64,000 bases of DNA from Cyanidioschyzon merolae (Eukaryota): assembly GCA_000091205.1 (NCBI GenBank), contig AP006491.2. One strand, 5' to 3'. This document shows positions 4,008 through 59,904 of the stretch, one piece after another. The number at the start of each line of letters is the position of its first letter. Positions within the stretch are counted from its first letter, which is position 1. Below the pieces are notes generated by a model, which was not told the origin of the DNA, did not search any database, and saw only the letters and a list, made by a program, of their open reading frames with translations. The position numbers and the translations under genes were made by a program.

Positions 4008-4309
4008 TCAAGGAATGCTACGCCTGACACGGACTCGGGGCTGGTTATCATTCTGGGAGCCTGCAAGCTACACATACAGAAATACTGCCTGGGGAAGCGC
4101 GAAAAATGATATGCTTGGAGTCCACTAGGAACAACGCGACGCCCAAACGCACACGAAACACCTCCAGTCCCAGAATGAAATGCCTTGCGTACGAGTTGCT
4201 CAGATCTCGCTGAAGCGTCCGTCGCTGGGCAAATCATGAAGCACAATCCTGGTAACTCGTCCGGCTCGCAGGAGCTTCCGCCTAGGAGATAAACTTTCGG
4301 CAATGCGGA

Positions 4310-15870: not shown

Positions 15871-16170
15871 CTCGAGTCGGCGCCCTCTGTGTGGTATAGA
15901 AAAGCCGTTCTAGCTCTATGAACTATCTGCTCCAGCGGTTCAGGCGCAAAGGCGGAGACGGAACTGCAGGTTCTAGGCACACACGATAGGTCGTATGAAC
16001 CGACCAGAATATCCTAGAAGAAGTATAGGTCGTGTAACTTGGAGGTAGGGTGTTTCATGGATACTTCACCGTGCACTGAAAAAAACACAAAAAGAAAGGA
16101 AAAAGCGCACAATCGGAGAACGCTGGCACAAGTAAACGTCTTGTCCATGAAAAAACAAGAAGAAAAAAAT
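15871..16170 (+). repeat. SINE-like dispersed repeat, near full-length copy in sense orientation. The head is ctcgagtcggcgccctctgtgtggtatag and the A-rich tail is gaaaaaacaagaagaaaaaaa. It is flanked by an imperfect ~12-bp direct repeat.
   Basis: Reverse-complement homology to 49335-49640 along the whole length. Flank cacggcgtctcc (15859-15870) matches catggcgtctgc (16172-16183) at 10 of 12 positions. Confidence 0.65.
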
Positions 16171-29590: not shown

Positions 29591-29755
29591 ATATATGTCT
29601 ATCTTCGACAATCCAGTAGCTTGCAAAGCTGCCTTGAGGAAAGGCAAAACATGGAGGCCTATACCTGCGAGCTAAATAGGGGTATCGATTCGTTCACAAA
29701 GTCCTGTTCGAGAGCGTCGCGAATGAACTCGTTTCCGATGACGTAGGGAATTCAA

Positions 29756-30330
29756 GTTCCAAAGAGTCAGCGAACCGAATCCGAGAAGACCACCAAACAT
29801 CCTCGAACGACTTGCAGGTCAGGAAACCCTCATTGCCGGACTTGGAATGTCGAGGCCGCACGCTTAGAATGTGCCCTGGAAAGATGCTCAAGGCCAGGAG
29901 CAGTGCGATAAGTCCAGGGCAGCAACTTCAGGTAGAACAGGTTCACAAGTTCCAAAGAGTCAGCGAACCGCATCCGAGAAGACCACCAAACATCCTCAAA
30001 CGACTTGCAGGTCAGGAAACCCTCATTGCCGGACTTGGAATGTCGAGGCCGCACGCTTAGAATGTGCCCTGGAAAGATGCTCAAGGCCAGGAGCAGTGCG
30101 ATAAGTCCAGGGCAGCAACTTCAGGTAGAACAGGTTCACAAGTTCCAAAGAGTCAGCGAACCGAATCCGAGAAGACCACCAAACATCCTCGAACGACTTG
30201 CAGGTCAGGAAACCCTCATTGCCGGACTTGGAATGTCGAGGCCGCACGCTTAGAATGTGCCCTGGAAAGATGCTCAAGGCCAGGAGCAGTGCGATAAGTC
30301 CAGGGCAGCAACTTCATGTAGAACAGGTTC
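29756..30330. repeat. Tandem array, 193-bp unit x ~3, satellite-like and intergenic
   Basis: The unit gttccaaagagtcagcgaaccgaatccgagaagaccacc starts at 29756, 29949 and 30142, period exactly 193. Near-identical ORFs tile both strands (MQVRKPSLPDLECRGRTLRM.. x3) because the unit lacks stops. Confidence 0.9.
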
Positions 30331-30768
30331 AAATGTGTACAATGGAATCCCGCGTCGATCGCGGCGCTGGCGAGTGGCTTGTCGTTTTTTTCGAACATAG
30401 GGTTCGGTTCTCGCTGATCCCTCACGCCGTAGGCAGGCGTCTCGCGTTGCGCTGCTCGTTTCCAGGCCGCTGCTGAGCCACTTTCGGGGCACGGGCCGGT
30501 GCTATGTTTTTCAAGTCACCACGCGCACCGCTGGCTTCCGCTGTGCTTTTTCTAGGCTGGAACTTGGTGTTGTGTTTGTCGGCGGTCCCGGTGGCGCGCT
30601 TCGTCTACGAACTCCCTGTCTGGGACCTCCGGGCGGAGCGCTTAGTGGCCAGAGAAACGCGCGCTGCGCTGCTTGCGCAGCTCCAGGAGTCGGCAGCGAC
30701 GACTTCGCCGAGCTCTAGCAAGTAGCCGTGACGAGACTTGAAGCACAGGCGGCGGCCGCAACAGCTCC

Positions 30769-33752: not shown

Positions 33753-34264
33753 AGCGCCTTGTCGGTAACGCTACGTTCTTGTGTGAAAATAACCTCTCTC
33801 CTGGAAAACGCTGTACTCGTTGGAAAACCCGGGGTCTCGAGTCACAGACTCGACTGAAGGCCAAGAGACACACTGGCACAAAAAAACGTGTCTTCGTTAC
33901 GCCTGGTCACGTACACGACCGCAGCGGTTCAAGGCGCCCGTGCGAAATGATCCCAGCGGCGCTACACCCCGTAGCGTCCCTGATGCGACAGCAGCAACCA
34001 CAGAAACACACACCTTGGACTCAAGAGCTCACAATGAACAAGTACGCAGGTCGAAAGTCCACGATACCACAGTCTGGCAACGAGACAGCACACACAAGCG
34101 GCAGCGCGAACAAAACGCACACGCTGTCCCTAGAGCTCGGCAGCGCCGGTTACAATTTTTTTTAATTTCATAAAGCGTTGACGAAGGCCGGCATTTCCCG
34201 ATTGACTGCTGGGGCGCTTGATACCAGCGTGCGGAGCAGCATTCATGATTCCACGTCCGACTTC

Positions 34265-34425
34265 TAAGCTCCATAAGCCATACCGTGTCGTGGGTATACT
34301 GGTTGCTTCGTATATTCTATCGTTTGCTGAGTGCGTGTCCTGATCATCCGCGACACCGCCTATAGCGCCGGTGCGGGCGTAGCACGGCGACAAAACGGCG
34401 TTGCCGTACCTCGGAGGGCGTCTGC
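34265..34425 (-). repeat. SINE-like dispersed repeat, head-proximal fragment
   Basis: gtatactggttgcttcgtatattctatcgtttgctgagtg...cgcctatagcgccggtgcgggcg...ccgtacctcggagggcgtc aligns to 3860-4000 and to 50560-50700 (revcomp). Confidence 0.6.
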
Positions 34426-37400
34426 TCGAGACGGTAGACAGGTACGCTAGCGCAGCCAGTTGCCCGCCTTTTCTGGCCGGCAGACTGCAGTAGGTTTCAG
34501 CTTGTGCTTGCATACTTCGAGCCTGAGAAGCTGTCCGACAAATCTAGATGGCGGCAGCTCCTTGGGTCCCGTCTTCAGCGCGGCAAAACTCCTGATATAG
34601 ATAGCAGCGTTAAAGTCTCATTTCACAAACTCCATGCGTTTATTGCCGCTGCTCGAGCTGACCAATGGAAGGAGGCATCGGACTCGTGCCCGCTGTGCCA
34701 CTTGGTTCGCTGTCAGCAACTCGTACTTTTCTGTGGCCGAAGGTCTCCGCTGTCTTCTCTCCGTATCGACCCTCTGGCGTGTACATCTGTGCTGATTCCT
34801 TAGATTTTACTTGCTTCATATGAACGCACTTTTTTATGCTCTTAGGTGAAGACCTTCCCCCGGCGAGAGGGACTTGCGGAAGAAAGAAGGCATATGTCCA
34901 AACGTCAGCGTGTGCTAGAAGCCGCAGCGATTCTGTCTGAAGAGCGATCATTACGTTTCAGGACTGAAAACGCTCTTTCGATGGAGTTGAGCCACGGAGA
35001 GTACGAAGGAATGAAAAGCAGCTCTACTCCCGGATAGAATCAGCGAAAAGCTCGAACGCGAAGGGCAATGGTGAAATGCTATGTTGTCCAGTAGAAGGAC
35101 GTCGCCAGACCTGCGGGGAAAAGTCTTCGATCATTCGACGAAAGGGTTGCTGTTGTATGAGCGTTCCCTACGAGCGAAACTCAGGCCGTCAAATGAATCC
35201 ATTCTAGCTAGAACAGATGATGATGTCCTCGTTCTCCTCGAGTTCTACCGAACATTGCACGGGCTCCGTCTCCGCAAATACCCATCTACGCTTCAACCGC
35301 TTCATCCGAAGCAAGTCTCATCGACTGAAACAAACCGACATGACTCCGCTTCATGCTCATCGCGACGTTCCAGCAACGCTATCCTTGCGATTTCGGTGCA
35401 AGATGGTCGCGCGTGAACTACGACTCTTTTTGCGACTATATCCCAGTGTTTTCAGGACGACACGAACAAGCCGTTCAGAAACAGAGACGCCCGTGGTGGC
35501 TGTTACCGTCGCTTTTGCTTTCCATTACATGATCAACGGCTCGTTTTCTATCATTGGCCGAAAGCAGTCTTTCACAGTACCAGTTTCTGGCGCGTGACGC
35601 GTATACTTCTTTCTTTCAGTTTCCCCAACCATCTGAGTGCTGTGGTACATCTGACCTGAATGCGGAATGCAGTCCTCGTTCCACTATTCAGTAAAGAATC
35701 TTTCCTAAAGAAAGTTCGTCGTCAATCTACAATATACATTGCGTAGTGTTTCCGATCTCCTGCAACACACCACGAAAAGCATTCAATTAAATGCAGCGAA
35801 GTTTGAACAATGTTGAGTGGAAACACTATGAACAGGTGGATCTCCTCTGGTCTGGATGCAGCAAGTCGCAGATATGTCGCAGGATGTAACATTTGGTTTC
35901 AGGGAACTGTTATCGAGCTTTGGGACGATTCCAGATCTCCTGAACGCTCTCGATTTGGCATTGTTCTGAATTGTCCATTGCTGCAGCGTATGGACGTGGA
36001 GCCGTTCTCTGAGGAATTCCGATAAAACGCTTTCGAGTGCGTCTCAATTCGACCTAGGCATGAACAGCCGGGGCGTTGGAAGCGCCTCGGAAACGTCAGG
36101 CTGTGTGCAGCATATTAGCATTTGCTTGGGCAGGAAGCAAGGATTCCGCCTCGCATCACCTACATCGAAAGTGATCAAAGCATACAAGCAACGCATTCGC
36201 CAGCTCAAATTCCAAAGTGCCAGCGAATGGACGGCCCAGTCGCGCTGGCGAACCTTGTGCGCAAGCCTCATGAGGAATCCCCAAACCTCTGGCGTATCCT
36301 GGCATCTGCACTTACCGATTCGCTTCACGAACATTCACCCATGCGCCCGCAAGCAAACGCATTCCTGGCAGCAATGCTTTGTATGCGGATATTTCGTTAA
36401 TATCGCAGCTTACAGGTTATCTTTCGCTGCAGCGACAGAACAGGGCATGCCGTGCAGCTCCGGCTGTCGCAAGCTTATTTGCAACCCTTCTCCTGAATCA
36501 CGTATAGGCGACTGCGAACCGGCAACTACAGATTGCAGCTTCCGAGACGCGAACCAGCTTCTAATCGATGCCGGCGACGTTGCTCGCTATCGCACGCTGG
36601 CGGCAGCGCGTACCAGTCTCCCGTCGACGCATGGGGAACGAGCATACGCAATCCAAATGCTCGTGTTTCTGTGCGTCATTTCCAAAATATATAGCTTTGT
36701 CTCTATCATTTGTCTGCCGATCCATGCACGCCAGTGCTGCTCGCATCGCACCGTTTTCTCGACTGCACCATCAATCGATCATTCGAGCCGAATTCCCTGC
36801 ATGCACTGCGATTGCCGTTCGCAACCAGGGAAGCGCGAAGACACCTCCATGCCTTTCGGGGGCGCATGCAGCTCGCATAAGACCCCGATCACTCGTCACG
36901 TTGCGTAGAACGCATGAACCCAGCGAATGCGCCATTGTTCAGCGCCATTTGAACCCCCCGCTGCGTCGCCGAAAGCGCCATCCACGCGATACCCGCCCAG
37001 CAACAGCGCAGCAGCGTCGACTCGAGACACGCCTCCGGTTGCCGTGTGATCGACGAGCTCCCGCAGCGCGTGCAGATCACCGGCGAAGGCAACGAAGAAG
37101 CCGCAAGGGGCATTGCGCTCCGGATTCGAGCTGCCAACGGACGCGCGCGCCCAGCGATGCGATGCGACGCCCTGGGGATCACGACGGCACGCATCGCCTT
37201 CGATTTTCTCCCAAACGCGTTCATTTCTACCACAAGTTTCGCGGGCTCCAACGGCGAAATCCATTTTTGGTGGGGACACGTGTCCGTCGTGATGGTGCGT
37301 TCCTGGCCAATGATATATCGAACGAAAACAGTGCTTGAGACCTTTCCTCTGTATTCTTCTGCGGCGCGGCTGTTATGGATGGACACCGTCGGCTACGTGG

Positions 37401-37540
37401 CATCACGTGGTGACGCGAACTTGTGAAGTACACCAAAATTTTGCATTTGATTGGCGTTGTCATCGTTCGGAAAGAAGACGTGACATATCCCATTACGATT
37501 TAGAGTATACTACGCAAGTATTCGACGAGAAGGATAATAC

Positions 37541-38410
37541 ATGATGCAGTACAAACTCCAAGTGCGCAACTTTATCTTCGTAGTGCTCAGTCTGGCGTTG
37601 CTGGTGGGCCTTGCCTCGAGCGTGGCCGCTGAAACCCTGGACACTGAGGGTCGCTGGTATCAACAGCAAGTGACGGTGACTCCACAGGTGCAGTGCACAC
37701 CTGTGACGTACACGGCAACTTGTGTGCCGAAGCAGGCGTGCGTTCAGTACACGACACAACAGGTTTGCGAGAAAAAGCAGACCGTATGCCAGCAGGTGCA
37801 GCAGGTGCAACAAGTGCAGAAGACGGTGGTTCCGGTGAAGAAGACCGTCATGCCCATGAAGAAACAGCCCTTATATCGCTGGTACCAGTATGAGCAGGTT
37901 CAAGCAACGGCTACGCCAACGCCGATTTGCACTCAGGTGTGTCAGTACGCGAACGTGCAGGTCTGTGCTGCCTATGAGCAATACGAGGTTTGCAAGGTTT
38001 GCACGCAACAGTACGAGGAAGTTCAGAAATGTCAGCAGCAGTACCAGCAGCAGTACCAGCAGATGTATCGGTGGTATCAGCAGGTGCAGGTGACCCAGTG
38101 CCCGGTTGAATGCCAGGCGGGTCAGGTGCAGTGCCAGTACGTGAAGCAGGTGATCTCGACACCGAAGGTACCGTTGACGAAATTGCCGCCACCACCACCA
38201 CCAAGTGTGACGCCAGTGCCAACGGTAATCCCTACGGTCATCCCGACGACCGTCATTCCTACGGTCATCCCGACGACAGTTATTCCTACGGTCATCCCGA
38301 CGACAGTTATTCCAACGATCGTGCCAACGACCGTCATTCCGACAGTCGTCTCGACGACGATCACTACGGCGCCTACAACGTCAGTGCTGCCGTCTGCATC
38401 ACCACTGTAA
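37541..38410 (+). CDS. Secreted Cys/Gln-rich repetitive protein. It has a signal peptide, a C/Q/V/Y-rich domain, a PPPPPP hinge and a (T)VIPTVIPT 9-aa tandem repeat x ~5 (27-bp coding repeat). Novel, no family assignable.
   Basis: N-terminal signal MMQYKLQVRNFIFVVLSLALLVGLASSVAAE. About 20 Cys in QQ/YQQ context. The DNA tandem unit acggtcatcccgacgacagttattcct is repeated at 38230-38340. Confidence 0.6.
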   Translation: MMQYKLQVRNFIFVVLSLALLVGLASSVAAETLDTEGRWYQQQVTVTPQVQCTPVTYTATCVPKQACVQYTTQQVCEKKQTVCQQVQQVQQVQKTVVPVKKTVMPMKKQPLYRWYQYEQVQATATPTPICTQVCQYANVQVCAAYEQYEVCKVCTQQYEEVQKCQQQYQQQYQQMYRWYQQVQVTQCPVECQAGQVQCQYVKQVISTPKVPLTKLPPPPPPSVTPVPTVIPTVIPTTVIPTVIPTTVIPTVIPTTVIPTIVPTTVIPTVVSTTITTAPTTSVLPSASPL

Positions 38411-40284
38411 GTTACGTAGCCGACGAGCGTACATTGAAGTACATCAGGAGTGCCGGGTTGAGCCCAGATGGAGGCAGAGGGGTACGAGGCCAAGATTGGC
38501 CTTTCGTATGGAGAGAACGAATTAGAGAAATTGGAATCGGGGTAGAATTTCAGGCGATGGAGCTGGTCAATGAATACATTACTTCTCTGAAACGGAAAGA
38601 ATGTCTCTCGGTCGCAGTGCCGAGGCGAGAACGTGTGACGAAAAGCACCAAAGTGAACAACCAGCAGCGAGGGAGACGTGTGCTCCAGTCTCTGGCTTTC
38701 TGCACAGCACTCATTTGCGCCTTTCTGGATTTCCATTATAGTCTTTCACCTTAATTGTATTCCATCATCAGGTGCGTATACTCAAATGCCTTTTCGCATT
38801 TCATAGCCAGAAGTGTTCGGATTGCGTTCATTTTGAAAAAATAAAGAGCCCGATGGAAAGTTACGGACACGAAAGTCGAGGATCCTACAGGGCCATCCTC
38901 GCCAGGTTCCGCTAAAAACCCGAAAAGAATGTTGTTTTTGCCTGTGAACGAGGGAAGAAGAGCAAGTGACAAAGAAGACGAAGATGGAGATGTTGATGGG
39001 TGATAGGCGGGACCAGGTGTTCGCGAGACTCGGCGATAACGAGACTGGAATCGCACTGAGGGCTCGAGCTTTGGCAATTCCTGCATTGATGAGTTCAGCC
39101 ACGGGCAATAAACACAAGGAATTTGTGAATTGAGACTTCAACGCCACCATCATTAGCAGACGCTCTACAGTGCTGAAGACGACGAGACCCGAGGAGCTAC
39201 GGCGATCCGAATACGTGTGGTATCCTCCCAGGCTCGTAGTGAACTGGTAGAAACGGATGCCGATACCAGACTGCCGGTCAAAAATGCAAGGAGTCGTCGG
39301 TGCATGGGTAGATCTATTTATTCACCGTTCTTGTAGAACGTTTTCTGTTTTATTGAGAGCAACGATTATCTTCTGCTGCTGCATCCTCAGCACTTTTCTG
39401 CAGTCACGACAGCAGGCAAGTTTCGGCAGCCGAAAGCGCCCCTGCTGCCGCGTTCTCGATCCGCCATGAAAAAGCGTACGCAGATCATGCGATCCGGACG
39501 AGTGTGCATCTCCGGATGCTTGACTCTAGGTATGCCTATGTATTTGTATGAGTATGTGTGCCAAGAGCTGCAGCGATCTGATCACGAGAGTTACCGCTCC
39601 TCGAAGCTGCATGCGGTACAGCGACGGCTGGTCAAGGCGACAAGCAACCTGCGTACCAGAGGCATACGCTCGTGTACCAGCAGAGAAATTGCGGATGCAG
39701 CCGGGTGTGTACGTTTCAAGCGTTCGTGCACGCTACCAGTGAGCTTGTCGCTTTTGCACCCGACTGAATACAATTGGGGTAACGGACTTACAGGCCTCAT
39801 ACGGGCACTCCAAGTCGCAGATGCCAGCGCACAGGGCCTGCTGGTCGCCGGCCCGTCACACCGCTCGCTGCCTGGAATCGCTTCGTACGCCTTTGCACAC
39901 AGGCAGTGTCGAGGCGAGATCTCCACTAAATTCATGCACTCTACATGGAAACATCAAATGATGCTGCCTGTATGGATCCGAATATCATTTGATGCATCCA
40001 GACATGCTGTCGAATGCGGTGGAAGCACGACGTGTCCGATTTATCTTCCTGGAATGTGCACCAGTGCAGCAAGTACCCGAACGCTTGTTATACGGACGCA
40101 CGCCCTCGCCCGTTTCGTGGCGATGATTCCGTTTCCAGTGGCTAGCAGCGTCATGAGACTGGTATCCTCCCCGAGCGCCGGTTTGCTGAGGTCACTACAT
40201 CCCTTCCGTTCTGCCTGCATCCAGGCAAAACGCGGGCGCACAGCGCCCCCATTTCCACATCCGATACCGACACATCCATCTGGA

Positions 40285-42762
40285 TCAGGGTGCTTCTGCG
40301 GTCGATGCGTTCGCGCCACCCGGTACATTCGAAGATGGAATACGGTTGTGCAGCAGCAGCATGTCGAGATAGTCCAACGCTCTGCTCAAGATCAAGTCCT
40401 GGTCCTGGGTAGCGTGGCACATTCCTTCGATCAGGCGATGGAGCGTCGCGAGTTGGGCCAGACGGATGCTATCCGATGTGCGGGCCTGCAGAGATCCAAT
40501 GTACAGAAGCAGGGATCGAACCTGTTCTTGCAGCGATCCGCTGGCGAGATCGTCGGGAGCGGCTTCGTCCTGCTCGGCGCTTCGGAGGGGTCGCGTTTCA
40601 TTGGGACGCGCTGGGAACCTGCGAGCAACACTGTCGGAAGGCAGCGCTGTCATCGATGACGCGGTGCGCCCGATGGACCACAACGAGCGGGGTAACGCGT
40701 CCGAGCGCCCAGAGACATGCCAACGCCCGCCGTCGTCACCCTGTGCTTCGTGGCTCGGGGTGTGCACGCCTGCATTCGACGACCGGGTAGCGCTCGGTGC
40801 TGGTGGTCTTTCGCTGCCATCAGACGCCAACTGCGGCGCCATCGGAGCGACCCCTGCGGCTCCAGCAGCCTGCGCATGCGTCCGTGGCATACCCTCGCGT
40901 TGTTGCGGTGCGGAAATGCGCTGCGTTCGCGAATGCGTAGGATCCGCTAGCCCCAGCGCTCGGTCATGATTCGCATCTGCTGGCGGCATGCTGTCGAATG
41001 CGTCGTACGCTTCTGGTTCCCATGGGTCCACGGTCGTGCCCCAGCGGTCTGCAGATGTCACGGGAAACCCGCGTGCTTTCCGATAATCGACCGCGGAATC
41101 GGGTATCGCTGGAGCGAGACGTGGCGCATCTTCAAACCCGCTCAGATTGGAGCGAGCTTGGATCAAACGAATGTCGGGCGTGGAGCGTTTGTCAGCAGTA
41201 CCTGTCTGCGAGTGATGCGCGGTGCAAGCAGAGACGTGCGCTGTGCGCTTCCGCGTCTGCTCAGCGAGCTGTTGTCGCAGTCCAGCAAGCTCCTGCTGCA
41301 ACCACGCAAAGCGCCGTAACCAGCATTGCTCGGCAGTGGGTTGATCAGGCGTTGCTGTGCAAAAACAAAGCCGAGCATCGAGCGCTGTCCCGTGCTCGAT
41401 GCCGTCGTCGGGAGTCGTACCTGCTGAAGCCCAACGCGCTGCAGTCGAGGGGTTTTCCAGTCGCGCTGGATCCGTCTGCTTGTTCTGATGCGGTGACGTT
41501 GCTGCATGCTCGTTGCGCTGCTTCGAGGCGATGCCCACTTTGTTGTTAGTTCGTTCAGATTCTGCGATCTGCTGGTACTGCATGCCCATACAGTCCTGAA
41601 ACCGATCTTCGATACGTTGCAAGAGTCGGACTGCTTGTCGCTGCAGATTTGTCGTGAACTCGCGGAATATTTGGACATCTCGCGCGAGGTCTGCACGCGA
41701 CTCCGCCAGCGCCTGGGTTTCCTTCTCGAGCTGCTGCCACCAATGGCGACAACCAGCGAGTACGGTGAGTACATCACGTGCAAGTCGCTCGCGGTCAGTG
41801 CGCAAGCCCTCGAAGGCTCGGCTGAGCGCAGTGAACTCGTGCTGGGCGCGCTCAAAGAGACCACGCCACTCCAGGTCGACGCTGGCCGGCTCTCGTGCTG
41901 GGGACAATAGGCTCGCGGGCCGGTTCCGCTGAGCATCGCGGTATCGCATGTGCTCTGTTGCCATGTGTTTGCCCTCGCAACGGTCAGGTGTGAACAACCA
42001 GCATTCGGTACCTGCATCGTTCGGCGAAGGTACAGCGGCCAGTGTCGAGGGTTCGGTCGGCTCGATTGTGAGCAAAGGCATGGAGCTCTTCGATTTTGCT
42101 TCTGGAGCGATGACTTGCTCACGAGGCACCTGACTGTTAGCGTCATCTGCAGTGTATCTTGCGCGATACACGCCGCGAAGCTCCTGCAATGAAGTCAGCG
42201 GTTGGTCTCTGTTTCGAGACGAAAGCGGTTGAAAGCGTACGCCAGCCGGATTATTTCGTATTGGCCTGGAGGTAAGCGCTTCCGCGAGACCTGGCAGAGT
42301 ATCCGCGTTTTCCTTGCAGGCAACATCGAGCGCAGCCGGCACGCTCTCGCATGGTTCACCCTCGGTGATGGTAACGGCCGCAGCAACGCTTGCTCTTGGC
42401 GGGCTCTCGGAGCAGACCGGGCCCTGATGATAATGAGCATGTCCCCGAGCACCTCCTGACACGCCCTGAAGAGCGGTTTCACAGCGCTTGGCTCCAGCTC
42501 TCCCGCGCATAGGCTCGGTGTGCGCTATTTCACGGGAAGAAGCGTGATCTTCCGAGCGCTGCAACTCTTGTAAACCTGGTTCGCTACCGTCTACTTCATT
42601 AGAATTCTGGGCTGTTCGAGAGCTCGTTTCACTTCGGGCCGGGTGCTTCTTTGGCCCTAGTTCGATGTCTCGTCGCCGGAGAAAGGTCTCTCGGCGCCTG
42701 CGCAACTCGTTTTCCCAACGAGCACATGCGTCAAGAACTTGCGTTTCCATAGCGTACATCAA
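40285..42762 (-). CDS. Hypothetical large protein (825 aa) with a central coiled-coil and low-complexity regions. No recognised domain.
   Basis: Longest ORF in the 39.4-42.8 kb interval. Coiled-coil-like stretch RDVLTVLAGCRHWWQQLEKETQALAESRADLARDVQIF. The overlapping + strand ORF 39466-40659 has junk-like R/S/C composition. Confidence 0.35.
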   Translation of the reverse strand: MMYAMETQVLDACARWENELRRRRETFLRRRDIELGPKKHPARSETSSRTAQNSNEVDGSEPGLQELQRSEDHASSREIAHTEPMRGRAGAKRCETALQGVSGGARGHAHYHQGPVCSESPPRASVAAAVTITEGEPCESVPAALDVACKENADTLPGLAEALTSRPIRNNPAGVRFQPLSSRNRDQPLTSLQELRGVYRARYTADDANSQVPREQVIAPEAKSKSSMPLLTIEPTEPSTLAAVPSPNDAGTECWLFTPDRCEGKHMATEHMRYRDAQRNRPASLLSPAREPASVDLEWRGLFERAQHEFTALSRAFEGLRTDRERLARDVLTVLAGCRHWWQQLEKETQALAESRADLARDVQIFREFTTNLQRQAVRLLQRIEDRFQDCMGMQYQQIAESERTNNKVGIASKQRNEHAATSPHQNKQTDPARLENPSTAARWASAGTTPDDGIEHGTALDARLCFCTATPDQPTAEQCWLRRFAWLQQELAGLRQQLAEQTRKRTAHVSACTAHHSQTGTADKRSTPDIRLIQARSNLSGFEDAPRLAPAIPDSAVDYRKARGFPVTSADRWGTTVDPWEPEAYDAFDSMPPADANHDRALGLADPTHSRTQRISAPQQREGMPRTHAQAAGAAGVAPMAPQLASDGSERPPAPSATRSSNAGVHTPSHEAQGDDGGRWHVSGRSDALPRSLWSIGRTASSMTALPSDSVARRFPARPNETRPLRSAEQDEAAPDDLASGSLQEQVRSLLLYIGSLQARTSDSIRLAQLATLHRLIEGMCHATQDQDLILSRALDYLDMLLLHNRIPSSNVPGGANASTAEAP

Positions 42763-42944: not shown

Positions 42945-44591
42945 ATGCGCTTTCGACGGGAGCAGTCACCAAGGACCCAGCCTCTGCTCCTGTTTGGGCT
43001 TGTGATCGGTGCTCTAGTCCTTTGGGACTGCTGGTGGCAGCTATACTGGAAAGCTCCGCTCACAAATGACGCCAGCGCTCGACCACAACTACTTCCGCAG
43101 CAATGGTTCACCCGAACACGGACAGGTCAGTTGCGATCGCTTGCCCAGGAGTACTTGTCGCCCTGGTTGCTTTTGGGTATTCCACGAACCATGTTGGATG
43201 CTGCTGAGGTTCCTTTTCACGGTGCTGGTGTACATATTCGGGTGCCGGTAAACCTGAGCGCCTCAAAGCGTGAGCCGTATATCCTCTACAGAGTTCTTGA
43301 TCATTTTCCGCAGACGTATCGAGACCAGCGCCTGCGCTGGATCCTGCAGCTGACGTTGGACGCTTTGCCGCTTCCACCAGGTACAGAGTTCTACGTTAAT
43401 CTCGGTGATTGTCCGCGCTCGACAGCAGACTCCTCCGGGCGAGCAGCATTCGCCGGGATGCCGATTTTCTCGTTTCGTACAGGCGCAGCGTACATCGATA
43501 TCCCTATTCCAGATCCGGCAGAATACGGCGCTTACGGTAACTACCAGCTGGTCGATCGTAGCAGTCGTGAAACACGACACGACGACTTGAACGGCTCCGA
43601 TGAGGATGCTGGCGGCGCGAGTATCCGCAGCGACGAGGCGATGCGCGGTACTGCAGCCTCGACTAGCGCAGACTGGAAGCACCGCGATGCACGGGCATTC
43701 TTTCGCGGAGTCACATCTGCATTCGAGCACCACGATGGCAATGAAGTTGCCGATGTACGTATCCAGCTGCACGTTCTCGCTTCGCGTCACCCGGATCTGT
43801 TCGACGCTGGCGTGGTGGCGTTCACCAAGTTCGAAAACAGCTCGCTGGCGCTATCACCAGCAGCATACAACACCGCACGTGTTCCTGAGACGCCGATGGA
43901 GCAGCGGTACCCTCCATTGCTGCCACGAACACCGTTATCCAGCATGCAACGCTATCGCTATGTGCTTGATGTGGATGGCGGACTAGGTTCCTCACGCAAG
44001 AGATCTATACTTCTGTCGAGCGGGGCCGTGCCCCTCTTTCAGCAATCGCCCTGGAAACAATGGTACGAGCCGCTGCTGGTGCCAAATGTGCATTACCTGC
44101 CGGTGGACCGCTGGCTCCGCAACCTGACGAAAATCGTGCGCTTGTTGCATCACCAGGATCGCGAAGCGCAGCGGATAGCGATTCGAGCCAGCACTTTCGC
44201 TCGCCACTACCTCAGCTACGAGGTAGCCGTGTCGTACTATCGTATTCTGCTACTTCAGTATGCGCAGCTGCTCCAACCTCGCCGTGAAACAAACGGCGAG
44301 CTCAGGGATGCTCAAGTGCCGTGGCACCATTGTGCGCAGCGTCCGGGTCTGCGTAACGGCCCCATGGGGTGCTGGCGCGGCTGGTTCGTCTACCGCTCGG
44401 GCGATGCGTTACCCTTCGGGTGCTCGTATCGACGAGACCGTACGCCGACGCATCAGTGCTGGCGAACACTACCTCGTGACCCGAGCATGATAACGCTTTT
44501 TTCGCCATGGAACGCCTCAGGATCGCCCTGGTTGCGACAGGAGAAGCGTGGAATCCACGAATCGTACCCGACGGAAGCAAGCGCTGGCTAG
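42945..44591 (+). CDS. CAP10-domain (GT90) glycosyltransferase with N-terminal signal anchor. The C-terminal ~100 aa are low confidence.
   Basis: TM anchor PLLLFGLVIGALVLW. The motif YVNLGDCP. DVDGGLGSSRKRSILLSSGAVPLFQQSPWKQWYEPLLVPNVHYLPVDRWLRNL matches the CAP10/KDELC/POGLUT family core. Confidence 0.8.
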   Translation: MRFRREQSPRTQPLLLFGLVIGALVLWDCWWQLYWKAPLTNDASARPQLLPQQWFTRTRTGQLRSLAQEYLSPWLLLGIPRTMLDAAEVPFHGAGVHIRVPVNLSASKREPYILYRVLDHFPQTYRDQRLRWILQLTLDALPLPPGTEFYVNLGDCPRSTADSSGRAAFAGMPIFSFRTGAAYIDIPIPDPAEYGAYGNYQLVDRSSRETRHDDLNGSDEDAGGASIRSDEAMRGTAASTSADWKHRDARAFFRGVTSAFEHHDGNEVADVRIQLHVLASRHPDLFDAGVVAFTKFENSSLALSPAAYNTARVPETPMEQRYPPLLPRTPLSSMQRYRYVLDVDGGLGSSRKRSILLSSGAVPLFQQSPWKQWYEPLLVPNVHYLPVDRWLRNLTKIVRLLHHQDREAQRIAIRASTFARHYLSYEVAVSYYRILLLQYAQLLQPRRETNGELRDAQVPWHHCAQRPGLRNGPMGCWRGWFVYRSGDALPFGCSYRRDRTPTHQCWRTLPRDPSMITLFSPWNASGSPWLRQEKRGIHESYPTEASAG

Positions 44592-45059: not shown

Positions 45060-45450
45060 CTGCACGAACCGGAATGCCTCAAGAGTTTCTTGGTCTGCAG
45101 CCTCTACATTCACATTAGAGCAATACGGGTCAACGGTTTCTTACATAGTTCTGGGATTCTTGAACCCGGCAAGCTTCTAGAGTATCTTGGTCTGCAGCCT
45201 CTACATTCACATTAGAGCAATACGGGCCAACGGTTTCTTACATAGTTCTGGGATTCTTGAACCCGGCAAGCTTCTAGAGTTTCTTGGTCTGCAGCCTCTA
45301 CATTCACATTAGAGCAATACGGGCCAACGGTTTCTTACATAGTTCTGGGATTCTTGAACCCGGCAAGCTTCTAGAGTTTCTTGGTCTGCAGCCTCTACAT
45401 TCACATTAGAGCAATACGGGCCAACGGTTGCTTACATAGTTCTGGGATTC
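45060..45450. repeat. Tandem array, 97-bp unit x ~3.7, intergenic
   Basis: cttggtctgcagcctctacattcacattagagcaatacgggccaacggtttcttacatagttctgggattcttgaacccggcaagcttctagagtttc starts at 45089, 45186, 45283 and 45380, period 97. Confidence 0.9.
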
Positions 45451-47820
45451 TCAGCGGCGTTTCGAAATGACTTGTTAGGCTTTTTGCCGCAGCAACACGT
45501 TACGTCACTGCGTTCAAGATCATTCGCGAGACTCTCAAGCAGGCATTTGGTGTAATGACCGATATCGCCATCCAATTCCCGTATATAAGACTCCACTCTT
45601 CTTCTTTCCGTCTGCGCACCATGCTCAAATCACGCGTTTCTTTCAATTTTTCGATCTCTGTTTTTCAGGGAAACAGGCTGGAACAGCGATTCGCGGCGCT
45701 GGACTGATGAAGAAACATACCCGACCTTGTCCCTGGACGACCTGTCCACAAACTCATGCTGAAAGCGCACTGGACATGCCGCGCCGAATGATCGATTCCG
45801 TTTCAAGAGAAAGTCTTTCTCTATTTGTGGCTATCGACGATACAGTACTCGACAGCATCAGCACGGTACTTTACACGGGAACTGCTTCAAGAGGATCCCG
45901 GCTCTTCGGTTTCCATGGAAAAGCGTCTTTCTTGGGTTTGAGTCGTCGAAGCAATTGCTGTTTCGGGAGATTTTGTCACCGCTTGCACGACGGGAAGGCA
46001 GACGGATCGAGATTTATGGAGTTGTTCTCCATTATGGGCTTTCCATCCGGTATTTAATGCATCATGGACAACCTCGCGTTCAGCAAAATTCTTTCTCTAA
46101 TGGGACCGCATGCGCTGGCATGTGCAGTGGACACAGTACTCGACGCCGGACTCGCCTAGAAGACGCCCGTGAACATAGCATATGGCACTGGGCACAGAAA
46201 CGGAGGAGGGCATTTCTGGAAGCCTTCTGCCCGTGTCGATGGCCATCTATCGGGCGATCTAGCAAGCCTGTATGGACTGTAGAGCGGCGCTCCGGGCATG
46301 CGGTCTAGTCGACACATGAGAACCCCTAACCACGGTTACGTTTCATTGTTGCAACGGGCAAGCCGACGTTGTCCCCGAACAAGATGAATTTGGTCATCGA
46401 AGCGAAGCTCGCAGATTCTTCCCCTGCATGAAATGCATAGACACCAGCCGGAAGCGGTGAAATCTCAACAAGCACGCCGCGATCATTACCTATCGACCGC
46501 AGACAACGGAACTGCAATGAAACGAGAGACCTTCGTATTTAAAGCCAGAGAAATACGAGCGGAATCGCGGCCAACAGCACAAAAAAATCCGCAAAGGTCT
46601 GTGTTGATGACCAATGGAAGCGGTGTAGACTTTAGGGTGTACACTCGAGCTACAGGACGCGTTCCACTGCATCCTAATACGGTTGCAGTGCCGGCGACTC
46701 GGACCTCTACACCTGCACATCTTTCGCGAGAGTCGTCGGCCTCAAACCCGCAGAAAGGTTGGAACGAAACCGTTGAGTGTGCACGGTATATGCCGCAATG
46801 CATCTGGTTCCACAGCAAGTGTCTGCTATCGCCTCAACGCCTTTGAAGTCACCAGATCAGACACCCACTTTCGCAGCATCACACCGGTTGTGGACGAGAT
46901 AGATCCTGGAAGCGTCTGCGGAAGCAGTGAACACGACGCATCGGGAAGCGGCAGGGTTCGTACATTCGGACTAACCTGGGACGATCCACTGATTCTCTGG
47001 GTGATCCAGGACAGGTATCATCGAAAGTGAGGATACATGCACACGTGCTAGAACGCGGTGTTGCGTTGCGCTCTGGTACAGGACTGAAGCATGGAACCCG
47101 GGTTTGCTCTGAATGTGCAGTTGCTGCTGAGCGTCAGAGAGGAGATGCTGGCCACTTTACAAGCGCTTCTGCATACAGCAACTCTGCAGCAGTGCTTCTC
47201 TTGAGACTGGAAGCTGGATTGATCCAGCGAGCCGTCCGCTGCAGTGCCGGAGCTGCCGACGTTTCTGTATTCGTGGTTGAGGTTGCCGCTGATCAACGAC
47301 TTGTTGCCTTGGCACAGCTCGCGTACTGGCGATCGCTTCAACCGAGCAGGCGCTCAACACTGTACCCTGCATTTTGATCAAAAAACCTTGATACTGACTA
47401 GAGAGTCCCGATGACGATATCATTGTCGGTAACCGAGAAAACTTCCCGGGAAAGGCGACGCAGTCATTGCCTCGGACGCCGGTGCGCCGCGTTGTGTCAA
47501 GTGGGGTGACGTCCACGCGCGCACCACCGTGCAGCACGTGCGACTCGGGTCTGCGGTACTCATGTGGATGTCTGTGGTGGATGAACGCACGGGCAAAGCG
47601 ACCGAGTTGGGCAACGCGGAAACGCAAGCGTGGGATAGAGATGGAAATAGGTGACGGAGAGTGCGCGACGATAAGGACTCGTTGGCGTTGGCGTTGCCAC
47701 AGGGTTTCCAGCAACGTACCCAAGTATTCGAATGTGGATGATTAAGCATGCTTTTACCGATGACGCAGTGTTCTGTGTGTACCCTCACCAACCCATTACT
47801 CAAGATCTGAACGCATCCAT

Positions 47821-49334: not shown

Positions 49335-49640
49335 CGTTCGATTTTTTTCATAGACAAGACGTTTACTTGTGCCAGCTTTCTCCGATTATGCGCATTTATG
49401 TTTTCTTACCTCTTTTGTGTGTTATTTTTTGTGCGCGGTGAGGTATCCATCAAACGTCCTACCTCCAAGTTACATTACCTATACTGATTCTCGGATATTC
49501 TGGTCGTTTCATACGTTCTATCGGGTGCGCTTAGTACCTAACCTAATCATACGCCTTTGGAACTTAACCGCTGGAGCAGATAGTTCATAGAGTTAGGAGG
49601 GCTTTTCCATACCACAGAGGGCGTCGGTTCGAGGCGTGGT
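49335..49640 (-). repeat. SINE-like dispersed repeat, near full-length copy. The A-tail complement ttttttt is at 49336 and the head complement ..gagggcgtcggttcgagg is at ~49640. It lies immediately upstream of the aldolase gene.
   Basis: Reference copy for the family alignments. Reverse-complement homology to 15871-16170. Internal segments are shared with the 1-170, 3790-4007, 22095-22200, 34265-34425 and 50545-50720 copies. Confidence 0.65.
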
Positions 49641-50544
49641 TCACCCGACGTAGAACTGGGATTCGTCGTCAGTGTGTGCTCGGACAGTCTGCGGATGCAG
49701 GCTTGCCTTCGCTGCACGACACGCTGGAGAAACTTCACTGTTAGGATATATCGTGGGGGCCGCCTCTCTCCTTCGTGATCATGCATGGAATGCGTTGTTG
49801 TCGGTTGGCAATGCGGGTTTGTGCTCGACACTCATACAGAAGGTAGGCGCAGAAAGCGCACTAAACCCGTGTGCGCATCCGATTCGCTGGACCATCCGCC
49901 TAGAAGGTAGCATGTGAGTTTGTTCGCCACTAGTGAGCGCTGAGGCTCTGTTAGCGGACCATCAGTTGCCAGTGCTGCACTCAAAGTGAGTGTCCGGCCG
50001 TCGACTATCACGGTGATGCCCAGCTGCTGCTGTCCTTCAAGGAGATCGCTGCGCTCCTGCTTTCAGCGCGGCCACTGTAACAGTAAATATGTCAGCGTCT
50101 CGGGGATCTCGTCTCGACAGCAGGGACAGTGTGATTCCCAGTGCGATTCCAGTGCTCCTATCCGGCTTAGAGCCGGTGCTGCTAGTCAGAAACCACCAAC
50201 GTGGATTTTGGCGAGCCACTGGGTACCGCGAGCAAGTCCCGGGAATTCCAGCGCCTCCCACCAGTACTTGCATGTGTATGCTAGGTTGTAGTTCCGGTAT
50301 AGAGTCAAGCCGGCGTTACGGGCGCGACTGGTTCCGTGTCTACGTTCCCATATTGGTGTTCGGACCGTTCGCTTGAGGCGTCTGAAGTCTTCTACATTCC
50401 TGGGGAACGATTGGAGCGGACAGCCTGCTTCTGGGCGTCGCGCTGGTCCGAGTGGACTCCGAGTACGTCGCTTCGTGCTGCTGCAAGCATTAGGTCTGTC
50501 TGCGCAGCTTACTGGCTCCCAGCATGATTATGTAGTCCGAACCC

Positions 50545-50720
50545 GTATCCAATGAACCACAACTTGAGGCGACGCCCTCACTGGCATGGCAAAGCCGTTC
50601 TGTCTCCGTGCCGCATCTGCTCCAGGGGTGTAAGCGCGATTGCGAATGCTCAAGGAAGGTTACGTGCACAGTGGAATGCACGAAATAACCAGTACATCCG
50701 AAAGGAAGTACAAGTAATGG
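50545..50720 (+). repeat. SINE-like dispersed repeat, head-proximal fragment in sense orientation
   Basis: cttgaggcgacgccctcactggcatggcaaagccgttctgtctccgtgc... is the revcomp homolog of 3900-4007. The CTCAGTGGTA-like stretch resembles a Pol III box A. Confidence 0.55.
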
Positions 50721-51071
50721 AACCTGAAGGTAGGGTCCAGCAGCATGATGGGCGCTTTCCCGAATGTCAATACCGATCTATCGCGCAATCTGGCCTCCAT
50801 GGTCCATAGAAGCGCTTTGGCATCGGCGGGAGAACCGGGCGTCGCCCCGCGCTGCGCTCCATGGAACAATGCTCAAATCACGAATAAATTGTACTTTATT
50901 AAATCTGTATGTACTATGATGTACAAAATAGCATTCCAGGAATCCCGAGATCACACACGCGCTCGAGACGTGAACTGTCTCGTCACTCTCGGCTACGGCT
51001 TCATCTTCCTCGTATTTCTTCGCCATTAGATACGAGTGCGGTAAGATTCTGGGCTGAAGTTTTCAATATTA

Positions 51072-57124: not shown

Positions 57125-57720
57125 GACGCCAGCGGTGTACAGTAGTGGCGACCGGGCCGCCCTAGAAGAAATGTCTCCGACTGATGTGCAGAAGCCTGCC
57201 CGTCTTTTTGGACCGGCCACCTACTACTGCTTCAAACTTTTTCTCATATAGTTTAACTTTGAGCGGTTTTCCAACCAAATTCTCTATCGTCGACCCGAGA
57301 GGTCTTTCCTCTCTCACCGCACATTTCCTTATATTGATTGCGGCGTTAAAGTCTCGGTTCACAAACTCCATACGTTTCTTGCCATTGATTGTACTTACTA
57401 ACGCAAGCAATCCTCGAACTTTCGCTATCCTTTCCATTTGCTCTTCTGTCAGCGGTCCGTACTTTTTTTATATCCTCAGGTCCCCGCTGGCACTTTTCCA
57501 TCTCGACCCTCTGAAGTGTACAGCCCAGTTCATGGTGTGTATACAATGCTCGAAATCCATCTACCGGTATTATAACAAAACGCCGTGCGCACTCCTTATA
57601 CGTTCTCGTCGTGGGATCTGGTGTACACCCTTGTTGGGTCGTCCAGCGCCTTGCTTCGTACGCTACTACGAGCCTTTGACTTTCATCCTCCTTCAAGGCA
57701 CTCAACTCACTGAAAAAAAA
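57125..57720 (-). mobile_element. Fanzor/TnpB-like element, copy 3. This is a 3' fragment: the C-terminal RuvC-III region plus the conserved 3' non-coding tail. It is inserted between divergent CYTH and SulP genes.
   Basis: ORFs 57346-57705(-) and 57162-57437(-) encode ...YTHHELGCTLQRVEMEKCQRGPEDIKK and ..KKRMEFVNRDFNAAINIRKCAV. The tail ..ccactactgtacaccgctggcg matches the copy-2 tail. Confidence 0.7.
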
Positions 57721-59904
57721 ATGCGAATGCCCGATACTCCCTACATTATAGATTCATGCGGAGATCAAACTGCCCGCCATCCGAGATTGCATGTACGGAT
57801 CTCAGCGCTCGCGTCGGAAGCATCGGCAGTGGACGAGCGCCTTGTTGTGCACTGCCTGTCCACTGGACACGCAAGGTACTTTCGTCGGAACATGGGCGTT
57901 GAGAATGCTTTAGGCGGTTTCATAGTAACGAATACCTTCAGCGGTAGCGGTGTACGTTTCGTCGTACGGAACCGGAGCCAGTGCAACTCGCTGGTGGTGC
58001 CTGGGTTCCGCGCGAGGCGGCGTACGCGCTGCGGAGCACTTGCTCGCGTACGGGGGACAGATTCGGCGCCAGAGGGTACCCCCGACGCCGAAGCGAGGCA
58101 CCGTCCCAAGCCTGGTGAGCGAGGGCTCTTCCCGCTCGTTGCACCGCGTGAGGATATCGGGCGCTATTTCGTTGGAGAGCGTCGGATTTTGGACGAACGC
58201 ACAGCGCGCTATCCGCTACGCTCGACGGTAGAGGAAGTGCTGGCGGGCATTACGGTGGCGATGGCGCTGCTGCCTGCGGCGGTGTCTTGCGCGTTGGCCA
58301 CGGGCGTGCCGCCGCTCGCTGGAATCGTCTCGACTGGTCTCCTGTGTGCGATAACTGCCGCACTGGGAGGACGCCCTGGCATGATCTCAGGAACATCTGC
58401 AGCGCTCATTATTCTGCAAGCGCCTCTCTATCAACAGTACGGCGCAGCAGCGGTCGCTGCCGCCGTGGTGCTCAGCGGTATACTCCAGCTTTTCTTCGGG
58501 ATCTATCGTTTGGGAAAGTTTGTGCGGCTGATATCGTACCCTACCTTTCTGGGATTCATCAGCGGCATCGCCATCTTGACGGCGACAAGTCAGGTCTATG
58601 CGTTTCAGCTTCCAGCGGGAACCGGGCTGAGCCCGGGCGCACCCTGGCTCCAGGGTAACATGTTGCGTGCAGCGTTGATCGTCGCAGCGCTCGCCGCTGG
58701 AGTCGCCCATGTATGGCCCTTGATCATTCAGCGACTACAGCGCCGGCGCCCCGATAGTACCCATCGGTGGCAGCACCGCCTCGCTGAGCTGTTGCGTTGG
58801 CTCCCAAGCCCACTAGCGGGCATCCTCGTGGCATCCATTTATGCGGAGGTGACGCAAGCGCCTGTGCGGCGGCTTGGCGACTTTTTGCGCGACACGCTGG
58901 CACAGTCAGGGGCCATTGGCGTATCCTGGGCAGCCCTGCCGTCAACACCGCTGGCATGGATGGCCATTCTGAGCACCGCGCTTGGTCTCGCATTCATCGG
59001 TCTTTTGGAATCTCTGTTAACCATGACTTTGGTAGACGAAGTCACGGAATCGAGGGGTAGCACGCGTCGGGAGTGTCTAGCGCTTGGGGCAGGGAATATC
59101 GCCGCGGGCTTATTCGGTGGCGTGGGCGGCTGCGGCCTCCTGGGCCAGTCGCTCCTGAACACGAAATCAGGGGGACGCGGGCGTCTCTCTGGACTGACTG
59201 CGGCGCTGTGTCTTCTCGTGTTGGCGAGAAATCCGAGCGGACTGATGATTCGGATTCCCGTCCCAGCCATTGCAAGCCTTATGGTGCTGGTGGCGCTGGG
59301 CTCGTTCGAATGGGCATCGCTGCGCTTGTTTCGTGCCATACCTCTCGCTGATTCGCTGACCATTGTGAGCGTTGCCCTGATGACTGTAGCAACGCGCAAC
59401 GTCGCCCTGGCGGTCCTGTTTGGTGTGGTATTCTCGGCGCTGGTCTTTGCCTATAAAGCGTCGCGACGCATTACCGCCCAGAGCTTTATTTCGGAGGACG
59501 AGCAAACGCGCGGATGGCGGGGATACCGGATTGACGGTCCGCTGTTCTTTGGCACGGCGGAGCGCTTCAGTCGTCTGTTCGACCCAGCACGGGATCGTGC
59601 CGAAGGCCATGAGCACGTGATCATCGACTTCTCTGGTAGCCGCATCTGGGACGCGACAGCGCTAGAGGCGCTAGACTCCCTAGCCCGTCAGTATAGGAGC
59701 TATGGTATTCGGCTGCATCTGTGGGGTCTGTCTCGAGATAGCGCACGTCTGCTGCGCGAGGCACGCGCCTACATCGACGAGAGTGTCACGAACGAGAAAG
59801 CGCTCTACTTGTACGAGCGGGTTGTAGCCGACTATCCCACAAACGATAGTCTAGAGGTTGAGTACGAGCTTTTCGCGAAAAGAGAATCGGGGAATGCAGC
59901 GTAA
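57721..59904 (+). CDS. SulP-family sulfate/anion transporter with C-terminal STAS domain. The start is taken at the Met at 57721 (alternative 57886). The longer ORF from 57184 overlaps the Fanzor fragment and is rejected.
   Basis: Sulfate_transp-like N-terminus LAGITVAMALLPAAVSCALATGVPPLAGIVSTGLL. Multiple TM helices. The STAS domain is HVIIDFSGSRIWDATALEALDSLARQYRSYGIRLHLWGL. Confidence 0.88.
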   Translation: MRMPDTPYIIDSCGDQTARHPRLHVRISALASEASAVDERLVVHCLSTGHARYFRRNMGVENALGGFIVTNTFSGSGVRFVVRNRSQCNSLVVPGFRARRRTRCGALARVRGTDSAPEGTPDAEARHRPKPGERGLFPLVAPREDIGRYFVGERRILDERTARYPLRSTVEEVLAGITVAMALLPAAVSCALATGVPPLAGIVSTGLLCAITAALGGRPGMISGTSAALIILQAPLYQQYGAAAVAAAVVLSGILQLFFGIYRLGKFVRLISYPTFLGFISGIAILTATSQVYAFQLPAGTGLSPGAPWLQGNMLRAALIVAALAAGVAHVWPLIIQRLQRRRPDSTHRWQHRLAELLRWLPSPLAGILVASIYAEVTQAPVRRLGDFLRDTLAQSGAIGVSWAALPSTPLAWMAILSTALGLAFIGLLESLLTMTLVDEVTESRGSTRRECLALGAGNIAAGLFGGVGGCGLLGQSLLNTKSGGRGRLSGLTAALCLLVLARNPSGLMIRIPVPAIASLMVLVALGSFEWASLRLFRAIPLADSLTIVSVALMTVATRNVALAVLFGVVFSALVFAYKASRRITAQSFISEDEQTRGWRGYRIDGPLFFGTAERFSRLFDPARDRAEGHEHVIIDFSGSRIWDATALEALDSLARQYRSYGIRLHLWGLSRDSARLLREARAYIDESVTNEKALYLYERVVADYPTNDSLEVEYELFAKRESGNAA

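Follow-up and report, generated by a model that had tools for sequence, protein, structure and literature searches.

CMI046C is an intronless gene of the hot-spring red alga Cyanidioschyzon merolae that is switched more than 500-fold between the walled diploid and the wall-less haploid phase, and it probably encodes a secreted structural glycoprotein of the diploid extracellular matrix or cell wall. The gene was analyzed within a window of 64,000 nucleotides (NCBI GenBank assembly GCA_000091205.1, contig AP006491.2), in which an open reading frame (ORF) at positions 37541-38410 on the (+) strand runs from ATG to stop and specifies 289 amino acids (aa) plus stop. In strain 10D the identical protein is recorded as BAM79950.1/XP_005536236.1, 'hypothetical protein CYME_CMI046C'. 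The gene has an annotation but is uncharacterized, and a full-text literature search with the name 'CMI046C' returned zero matches. A preliminary description, made from the sequence alone, had likened the product to mucin or cell-wall/adhesin-like proteins, which fits the diploid-only expression paralleling that of the fasciclin gene CMI147C. The wall localization, disulfide pattern, glycosylation, cross-linking chemistry and silencing mechanism that are set out below are inferred.

CMI046C is a genuine gene switched on in walled diploid cells

Expression values were taken from the RNA sequencing (RNA-seq) table in Supplementary Data Set 8 of Plant Cell 2026;38:koag148 (PMC13353863). Strain 10D of C. 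merolae is haploid and has no wall; the cell-walled diploid phase of the species was first reported in that 2026 paper (PMC13353863). In the cell-walled diploid of MS1, CMI046C transcripts reached 2900, 2880 and 3195 transcripts per million (TPM), compared to 8.8, 7.6 and 2.8 TPM in the wall-less haploid MS1 Ha3 and 0.69, 0.63 and 1.62 TPM in 10D, with log fold changes of 9.14 and 11.73 and a false discovery rate of 0 (PMC13353863). The neighboring genes CMI044C and CMI047C showed flat expression between the phases (PMC13353863). The data demonstrate that CMI046C is switched more than 500-fold between the walled diploid and the wall-less haploid. Among the ~100 rows of Data Set S8 that were examined, its diploid TPM was the highest and its diploid-to-haploid ratio was among the largest. 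The profile is nearly the same as that of the single fasciclin gene CMI147C, which produced 3132, 3043 and 3064 TPM in the diploid, and 4.2, 3.7 and 2.8 or 1.9, 0.7 and 1.0 TPM in the haploids (PMC13353863). Fasciclin proteins are treated as wall-building in this work, and fasciclin and lysyl-oxidase genes are highlighted as wall-related and diploid-specific (PMC13353863); the text of the paper never mentions CMI046C. RBOH and lysyl oxidase are also reported to be mostly diploid-expressed, which for RBOH applies to one of the two C. merolae genes.

The coding status of the ORF was assessed further with variants from metagenomic and other environmental contigs of C. merolae-like strains, which share 96.7-98.7% DNA identity with the window where they are colinear with it. 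The ORF was intact in all full-length variants, the differences being in-frame insertions or deletions and one alternative C-terminal allele. All 14 Cys of the N-terminal head domain are invariant among variants of the C. merolae lineage, and only residues 97 and 111 vary in the head outside a tract of QQV repeats, by two conservative substitutions. The ratio of nonsynonymous to synonymous polymorphism (pN/pS) against variants L001 and L002 was 0.13-0.20 for the whole coding sequence and ~0.11 for the head. The repetitive tracts change in length: there are 3, 5 or 7 copies of QQV and 6 or 7 residues in the poly-Pro run, and the TVIPT array differs by +4 aa or -9 aa among strains. On the points that the preliminary description had named for checking, a transcript is present, the ORF is uninterrupted in the full-length variants and repeat number is polymorphic between strains. 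The alternative tail allele (...AVPTTSPVSVTEMSSSVY; ending in …SSSVY) results from a 45-bp deletion together with a shift of the stop in L003 and L004, two contigs that are internally scrambled and look like assembly chimeras.

Two fusions from environmental assemblies were also judged to be assembly chimeras, namely P0002, in which a 14-3-3 protein is fused in frame to the C-terminal part, and P0015, which is a fusion to an unrelated multi-pass membrane protein that is not in the window. Because of the P0015 chimera, a 90%-identity protein cluster wrongly ties an 'Euglena mutabilis' transcript to CMI046C; the transcript belongs to the membrane-protein partner in P0015.

The window has a GC content of 55% and contains many overlapping spurious ORFs of more than 200 aa, so ORF length alone is weak evidence for a gene. 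This abundance of ORFs and the near silence of CMI046C in the sequenced strain 10D are what could be said for a chance ORF in GC-rich DNA. That explanation has a negligible probability and is refuted by expression at ~3000 TPM in diploids, a head pN/pS of ~0.11, in-frame conservation between strains and distant relatives that share ten Cys residues. The RNA-seq data, the strain conservation with low pN/pS and the relatives with the same Cys framework establish that CMI046C is a genuine intronless gene under purifying selection.

Architecture of the protein and its relatives

The protein begins with MMQYKLQVRNFIFVVLSLALLVGLASSVAA, which comprises a basic n-region, a 14-residue hydrophobic core and V-A-A ahead of Glu31. 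The published entry for CMI046C in Data Set S8 gives SP(Sec/SPI) with SignalP-5.0 and zero transmembrane (TM) segments with Phobius, and the signal peptide proposed in the preliminary description is therefore supported both by sequence features and by the published prediction. The exact cleavage after residue 30 is predicted from the sequence motif.

The signal peptide is followed by a Cys-rich head with a Gln/Tyr/Val-rich composition, as had been described, although the domain has ~175 residues (aa 31-205) and 14 Cys rather than the ~190 residues and ~20 Cys first proposed. The head is 26% Gln, 16% Val, 9% Tyr and 8% Cys (45 Gln, 28 Val, 19 Thr, 15 Tyr, 14 Cys and 11 Lys residues), with the Cys located between aa 52 and 198. 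The mature protein of 259 residues contains 14 Cys, 15 Tyr and 13 Lys in total, but zero His, zero Phe, one Asp, one Asn and two Gly. The head holds three internal repeats with RWYQ at the start of each. Alignment of unit 1 with unit 2 gave z = 4.5, which was equalled by 1 of 500 shuffles, and alignment of unit 2 with unit 3 gave z = 3.1, equalled by 3 of 500 shuffles. Positions of the features are collected in Table 1; the linker KTVVPVKKTVMPMKKQP between the first two Cys modules is a putative cross-linking site.

A hinge (aa 206-227) that contains the hexa-proline run separates the head from the repeat array. Five repeat units were confirmed, but they are not the perfect 27-bp copies described initially: the first three share 24-25 of 27 bases with each other and the others share 19-23 of 27, so that no two are identical as DNA and three are identical only as protein. 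Tandem Repeats Finder (TRF) placed the array at 38231-38358 with a period of 27 bp, 4.7 copies, 85% matches and a score of 165. The Thr/Ser-rich tail TITTAPTTSVLPSASPL that follows also was described correctly. Overall the stalk and tail region spans 68 aa with 59% T+S+P and five 9-aa units, which is very short for a mucin repeat domain. The C-terminus (…TTSVLPSASPL) does not have the features of a glycosylphosphatidylinositol (GPI)-attachment signal, the mean of the last hydropathy window (aa 271-289) being 0.41, and no endoplasmic reticulum (ER)-retention motif is present at the C-terminal end (…SASPL).

These features bear on whether the protein might never be exported and instead remain inside diploid cells, in the secretory or vacuolar system. 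The signal peptide indicates only entry into the ER and is in keeping with such a location. As there is neither a C-terminal retention motif nor a TM segment, as the mucin-like tail and the Cys-rich head are both characteristic of extracellular proteins, and as expression tracks the presence of the wall, an internal residence is very improbable.

Table 1. Coordinates of CMI046C, its sequence features and the dispersed repeat copies in the window
Feature	Position	Strand	Basis or remark
Coding sequence of CMI046C, intronless, 289 aa plus stop	37541..38410	+	ORF, exact protein match, RNA-seq, pN/pS
Signal peptide, aa 1-30, predicted cleavage after VAA	37541..37630	+	hydropathy, sequence, published SignalP-5.0
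Cys/Gln/Val/Tyr-rich head, aa 31-205, ~175 aa, 14 Cys	37631..38155	+	composition
Cys module 1, aa 52-83: C-x8-C-x5-C-x8-C-x6-C	37694..37789	+	five Cys and spacing kept in CMO001C and P0021/P0025
QQV tract QQVQQVQQVQ, length-polymorphic	37790..37819	+	3 copies here, 5 in L006, 7 in L007
Lys/Val/Pro-rich linker KTVVPVKKTVMPMKKQP	37820..37870	+	sequence
Cys module 2, aa 130-154: C-x3-C-x7-C-x8-C-x2-C	37928..38002	+	five Cys and spacing kept in CMO001C and P0021/P0025
Gln/Tyr tract QQQYQQQYQQMYRWYQQ	38033..38083	+	includes 12-bp QQQY-coding tandem repeat at 38033-38062 (TRF)
Partial Cys module 3, aa 187-198: C-x3-C-x6-C	38099..38134	+	preceded by third RWYQ motif
Hexa-proline PPPPPP, aa 216-221	38186..38203	+	7 Pro in L006 and L007
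Five 27-bp units, aa 228-272: TVIPTVIPT x3, TVIPTIVPT, TVIPTVVST	38222..38356	+	TRF, unit alignment
Thr/Ser-rich tail TITTAPTTSVLPSASPL, aa 273-289, plus stop	38357..38410	+	no hydrophobic GPI or TM signal
Dispersed repeat copies (part 1)	18-152, 3801-4151, 4971-6701, 15870-16155, 29753-30331, 34212-34430
Dispersed repeat copies (part 2)	34583-34785, 45069-45451, 49340-49643, 50426-50734, 57127-57764, 60206-62132

A Pfam scan of CMI046C returned nothing but a meaningless match to Mod_r (E = 6), and PDB sequence searches with the protein and with a three-member profile gave nothing meaningful. No trefoil, Hint or kelch-like domain, as in the subtelomeric kelch/trefoil/Hog secreted families of Cyanidiophyceae, was hit in the Pfam scan, and the published table assigns no KTH-variant label to the gene. 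Word-indexed protein searches recovered the orthologue cluster, fragments and P0021 only; as they missed CMO001C although it is in the collection, they constitute a weak negative. When the head was searched exhaustively with phmmer against 1.84 billion representative proteins, seven hits were obtained: one was the orthologue cluster, three were fragments of that cluster, and the others were P0020, CMO001C and the P0021/P0025 protein. P0020, a bacterial-type repeat protein of 2039 aa (E = 5e-5), was discarded, since none of the Cys align and the match reflects Thr/Val composition. Two real distant relatives were detected and no others: CMO001C, a C. merolae protein of 503 aa encoded on chromosome 15, and the environmental P0021/P0025 protein of 484 aa. 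Their library-wide E values were 2.5e-4 and 3.1e-4, their pairwise E values 7e-11 and 3e-7, and their identity in the head 23-27%.

Ten Cys are invariant with identical spacing in CMI046C, CMO001C and P0021/P0025, arranged in two modules with a Trp in between. A signal peptide is common to the three proteins, with CMO001C and P0025 beginning with a hydrophobic leader, and each has a low-complexity C-terminal tail that is rich in Ser/Thr/Pro or Ser/Ala/Tyr. Unlike CMI046C, neither relative is rich in Gln/Val, and both are without a third RWYQ module, a PPPPPP hinge and TVIPT repeats; the partial Cys module 3 is not conserved in either. Their tails also are much longer than that of CMI046C, and the CMO001C tail has extra Cys. 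Judged by this shared Cys framework, a small, uncurated and lineage-specific CMI046C/CMO001C family does exist. The earlier statement that no family is recognizable is correct as far as Pfam and PDB are concerned. All three protein types were found in contigs of one metagenome, Ga0080006.

Besides CMI046C, the OrthoFinder group OG0000056 comprises CMK153C and CMK168C together with three genes from Cyanidium and two from Cyanidiococcus, but none from Galdieria (PMC13353863). Two of its members are likewise predicted to be secreted and are diploid-specific, CMK153C at ~2460 versus 2-3 TPM and Cyanidium g1256 at ~9300 versus 6 TPM (PMC13353863). A location of the P0025-type locus at a CMK153C-like position was ruled out, as phytoene desaturase is not nearby. 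In the environmental locus L009, a few kb separate the CMO001C-type relative and an ORF that matches the Hint module weakly, below the Pfam cut-off (11-568 (-) and 4854-6365 (+)). This arrangement fits a position among Hog-type secreted gene families, which have been described as mostly subtelomeric (PMC13353863).

A probable structural glycoprotein of the diploid wall

Cyanidiophyceae are without cellulose synthases, and the wall of Cyanidium was 50-55% protein in an early study (PMC13353863). The diploid wall is thought to be proton-impermeable, its structural proteins have not yet been identified, and the two phases differ in 35-50% of their secretory-protein genes (PMC13353863). CMI046C is a concrete candidate for a wall component because it combines the highest diploid TPM of the rows examined with predicted secretion and a Cys framework that is confined to the lineage. 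The candidate is open to knockout and tagging, as the organism has efficient homologous recombination. Signal peptide, absence of TM and GPI signals, Cys/Tyr/Lys-rich head, Pro/Thr stalk and very high expression exclusively in the walled phase together argue that the protein is probably a structural glycoprotein that diploid cells secrete to the extracellular matrix or wall.

A pathway consistent with these features can be proposed. The Sec signal peptide would direct the protein to the ER and be cleaved after residue 30. The ~175-residue head would fold around disulfides, with the two conserved five-Cys modules and four further Cys, and the PPPPPP hinge and Thr/Val/Ile/Pro repeats would form an extended, probably O-glycosylated stalk of strain-variable length. 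As membrane anchor and GPI signal are both absent, the protein would be released at the surface and might be retained in the largely proteinaceous, cellulose-free wall by covalent cross-links, through disulfide exchange and/or Lys and Tyr links. Disulfides would be the obvious candidate, and Lys links made by the diploid-specific lysyl oxidase or oxidative Tyr links are possible. In haploid cells such as 10D, CMI046C is switched off.

Alternatively, the protein might be a soluble or loosely bound mucin-like glycoprotein of diploid cells and not a cross-linked, load-bearing part of the wall. It could then help to form a layer that protects or lubricates, such as one that separates daughter cells from the mother wall, or act as an acid-barrier partner of the diploid-biased trefoil-factor (TFF)-like proteins. 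A signal peptide without an anchor and a Thr/Pro-rich tail of mucin type would suit this role, as would the 13 TFF-like genes that are mainly diploid-expressed in C. merolae, since animal TFFs are co-secreted with mucins (PMC13353863). The expression data do not separate soluble from wall-bound proteins. However, the Thr/Pro region of ~68 aa is very short for a gel-forming mucin, and the VWD, TIL and cystine-knot oligomerization domains were not found with Pfam. As the 14 Cys, 15 Tyr and 13 Lys and the co-regulation with fasciclin fit a cross-linked matrix protein better, a soluble mucin-like role is a minority possibility.

The strain variants, in which the tail end and repeat numbers change while the head is invariant, would also be compatible with a diploid surface adhesin or recognition protein that carries a Cys-rich binding head on a variable stalk and mediates cell-substrate, cell-cell or biofilm attachment. 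A head-plus-stalk layout with stalk-length polymorphism is a property of fungal adhesins, and expression data do not discriminate between an adhesin and a wall subunit. Nevertheless, there is no GPI or other anchor, the low-complexity Q/V/Y head has no recognizable binding fold, and a level of ~3000 TPM during vegetative growth in liquid culture is what one would sooner expect of a bulk structural component. An adhesin function therefore is doubtful. Overall the short stalk, the missing anchor and the cross-linkable composition favor a structural role in the wall or matrix over both the soluble and the adhesive alternatives.

Several considerations weigh against this structural role. The support for it comes from the sequence and mRNA levels. 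A soluble secreted protein would account equally well for the high diploid-specific expression, and retention in the wall is an assumption, as there is neither a GPI signal nor a known wall-anchoring motif. The stalk comprises only 68 aa. CMK153C, CMK168C and the other-species members of OG0000056 were not recovered by the phmmer search with the head at E <= 1e-3. Moreover, AlphaFold2 runs on the single sequence and on a three-sequence alignment of the head both yielded a mean confidence (pLDDT) of 42, so that the models are unusable for the fold or the disulfide pattern; no fold search was performed because matches to such models would be meaningless.

A more ambitious version of the structural role is that CMI046C and its few relatives are principal structural subunits of the proton-tight, cellulose-free and largely proteinaceous wall of diploid Cyanidiophyceae, built on an undescribed Cys-stapled, Gln/Val/Tyr-rich self-assembling domain. 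This version is speculative and rather unlikely. Self-assembly in this case would possibly involve long disulfide-laddered beta-hairpins or amyloid-like sheets in a lattice that is stable at pH 0.5-3 and 40 °C, and the scarcity of the acid-labile residues Asp and Asn (one each per 259 residues) would be an adaptation to acid and heat. If the protein truly is a wall subunit, it would open a molecular route to understanding how a wall made of protein endures pH 0.5-3, and the gene would be a clean marker for the haploid-to-diploid switch. If it is not, CMI046C is one more lineage-specific secreted protein.

Comparison with known systems places CMI046C as a lineage-specific variant of a familiar design in which a Cys-rich head is mounted on a Pro/Thr stalk. 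The fasciclin (FAS1) protein CMI147C resembles CMI046C in its predicted Sec signal peptide, absence of TM segments, location on the same chromosome and near-identical expression and haploid/diploid ratio. Unlike CMI147C, CMI046C has no fasciclin or other Pfam domain, and neither its Cys/Gln-rich head nor its TVIPT stalk is related to CMI147C in sequence. The chimeric hydroxyproline-rich wall glycoproteins (HRGPs) of green algae and plants, such as those of Chlamydomonas and Volvox and the extensins, also are secreted proteins with a compact, globular Cys-containing head and a Pro-rich extended region, with phase-specific expression that accompanies wall formation and with Tyr and Cys for cross-links. 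In contrast to these proteins, CMI046C has a single L-PPPPPP-S run, no Ser-Pro(3-5) repeats, and neither YXY motifs nor any Tyr in the stalk, which repeats TVIPT instead; no sequence similarity was found.

The spore coat of Dictyostelium and the oocyst walls of apicomplexans are resistant, largely proteinaceous structures with disulfide or dityrosine cross-links. In their proteins, as in CMI046C, Cys recurs periodically within a head of low complexity, the tail is rich in Ser and Thr, and expression is confined to the stage that has a wall, but there is no detectable homology, the Cys spacing and lineage differ, and cross-linking of CMI046C is putative. Zonadhesin and gel-forming mucins offer a more superficial parallel, as CMI046C has a short Thr/Pro-rich tandem-repeat region and a Cys-rich region. 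It is without the MAM, VWD, TIL/C8 and cystine-knot domains of those proteins, and at 289 aa it is many times smaller. The automatic UniRef name for the CMI046C entry, 'Zonadhesin', looks like a low-complexity artefact.

Genomic surroundings of CMI046C

The gene order in the window fits CMI040C-CMI048C of C. merolae chromosome 9, and the first four names and their order agree with the published gene table. The genes are the plastid ADP/ATP carrier CMI040C, tyrosine-tRNA ligase CMI042C, ERCC4-domain protein CMI043C, Snf7 (CMI044C), CMI046C, CMI047C and the GT90-family glycosyltransferase CMI048C. The window contains no tRNA genes or Rfam matches, and no paralogue of CMI046C.

A stretch of 3.8 kb without an annotated gene (33753-37540) lies between the Snf7 gene and CMI046C. 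It has equal length in the environmental strain L006, inside an alignment that is 96.7% identical overall, and could be an extended regulatory region. The ORFs at 36060-36908 and 36568-37338 within it have no Pfam hits and look spurious. Intergenic DNA throughout the window carries a dispersed repeat family with ~70-84% identity between copies (Table 1), two of which are situated ~3 kb upstream of CMI046C. The repeat also occurs in the environmental loci L009 and L013, which carry the two relatives of CMI046C. H3K27me3 silences most diploid-specific genes in Cyanidiococcus (PMC13353863), and in haploid C. merolae CMI046C may be silenced by the same mark. Because H3K27me3 in 10D marks mainly transposons and repeats (PMC13353863, citing Hisanaga et al. 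2023), the copies upstream of CMI046C could matter for this silencing. The supplement to PMC5405695 on H3K27me3 in 10D lists genes only under gene ontology terms.

Downstream of CMI046C, a 397-aa ORF without a Pfam hit (39466-40659 (+)) overlaps the end of the 825-aa ORF of CMI047C (40285-42762 (-)), in which no Pfam domain was found. The 397-aa ORF is probably spurious, and the published table has no gene between CMI046C and CMI047C. The GT90 gene CMI048C (42945-44591 (+)) is 4.5 kb downstream of CMI046C. The GT90 family includes enzymes that glycosylate Cys-rich repeats; CMI048C was weighed as a partner of CMI046C and was set aside. In L006, colinearity with the window ends ~310 bp past the CMI046C stop codon (from ~6085 in L006; 38724 in the window) and the next gene is Ribophorin I, not CMI047C, which indicates that the breakpoint of a rearrangement lies directly downstream of CMI046C in this strain.

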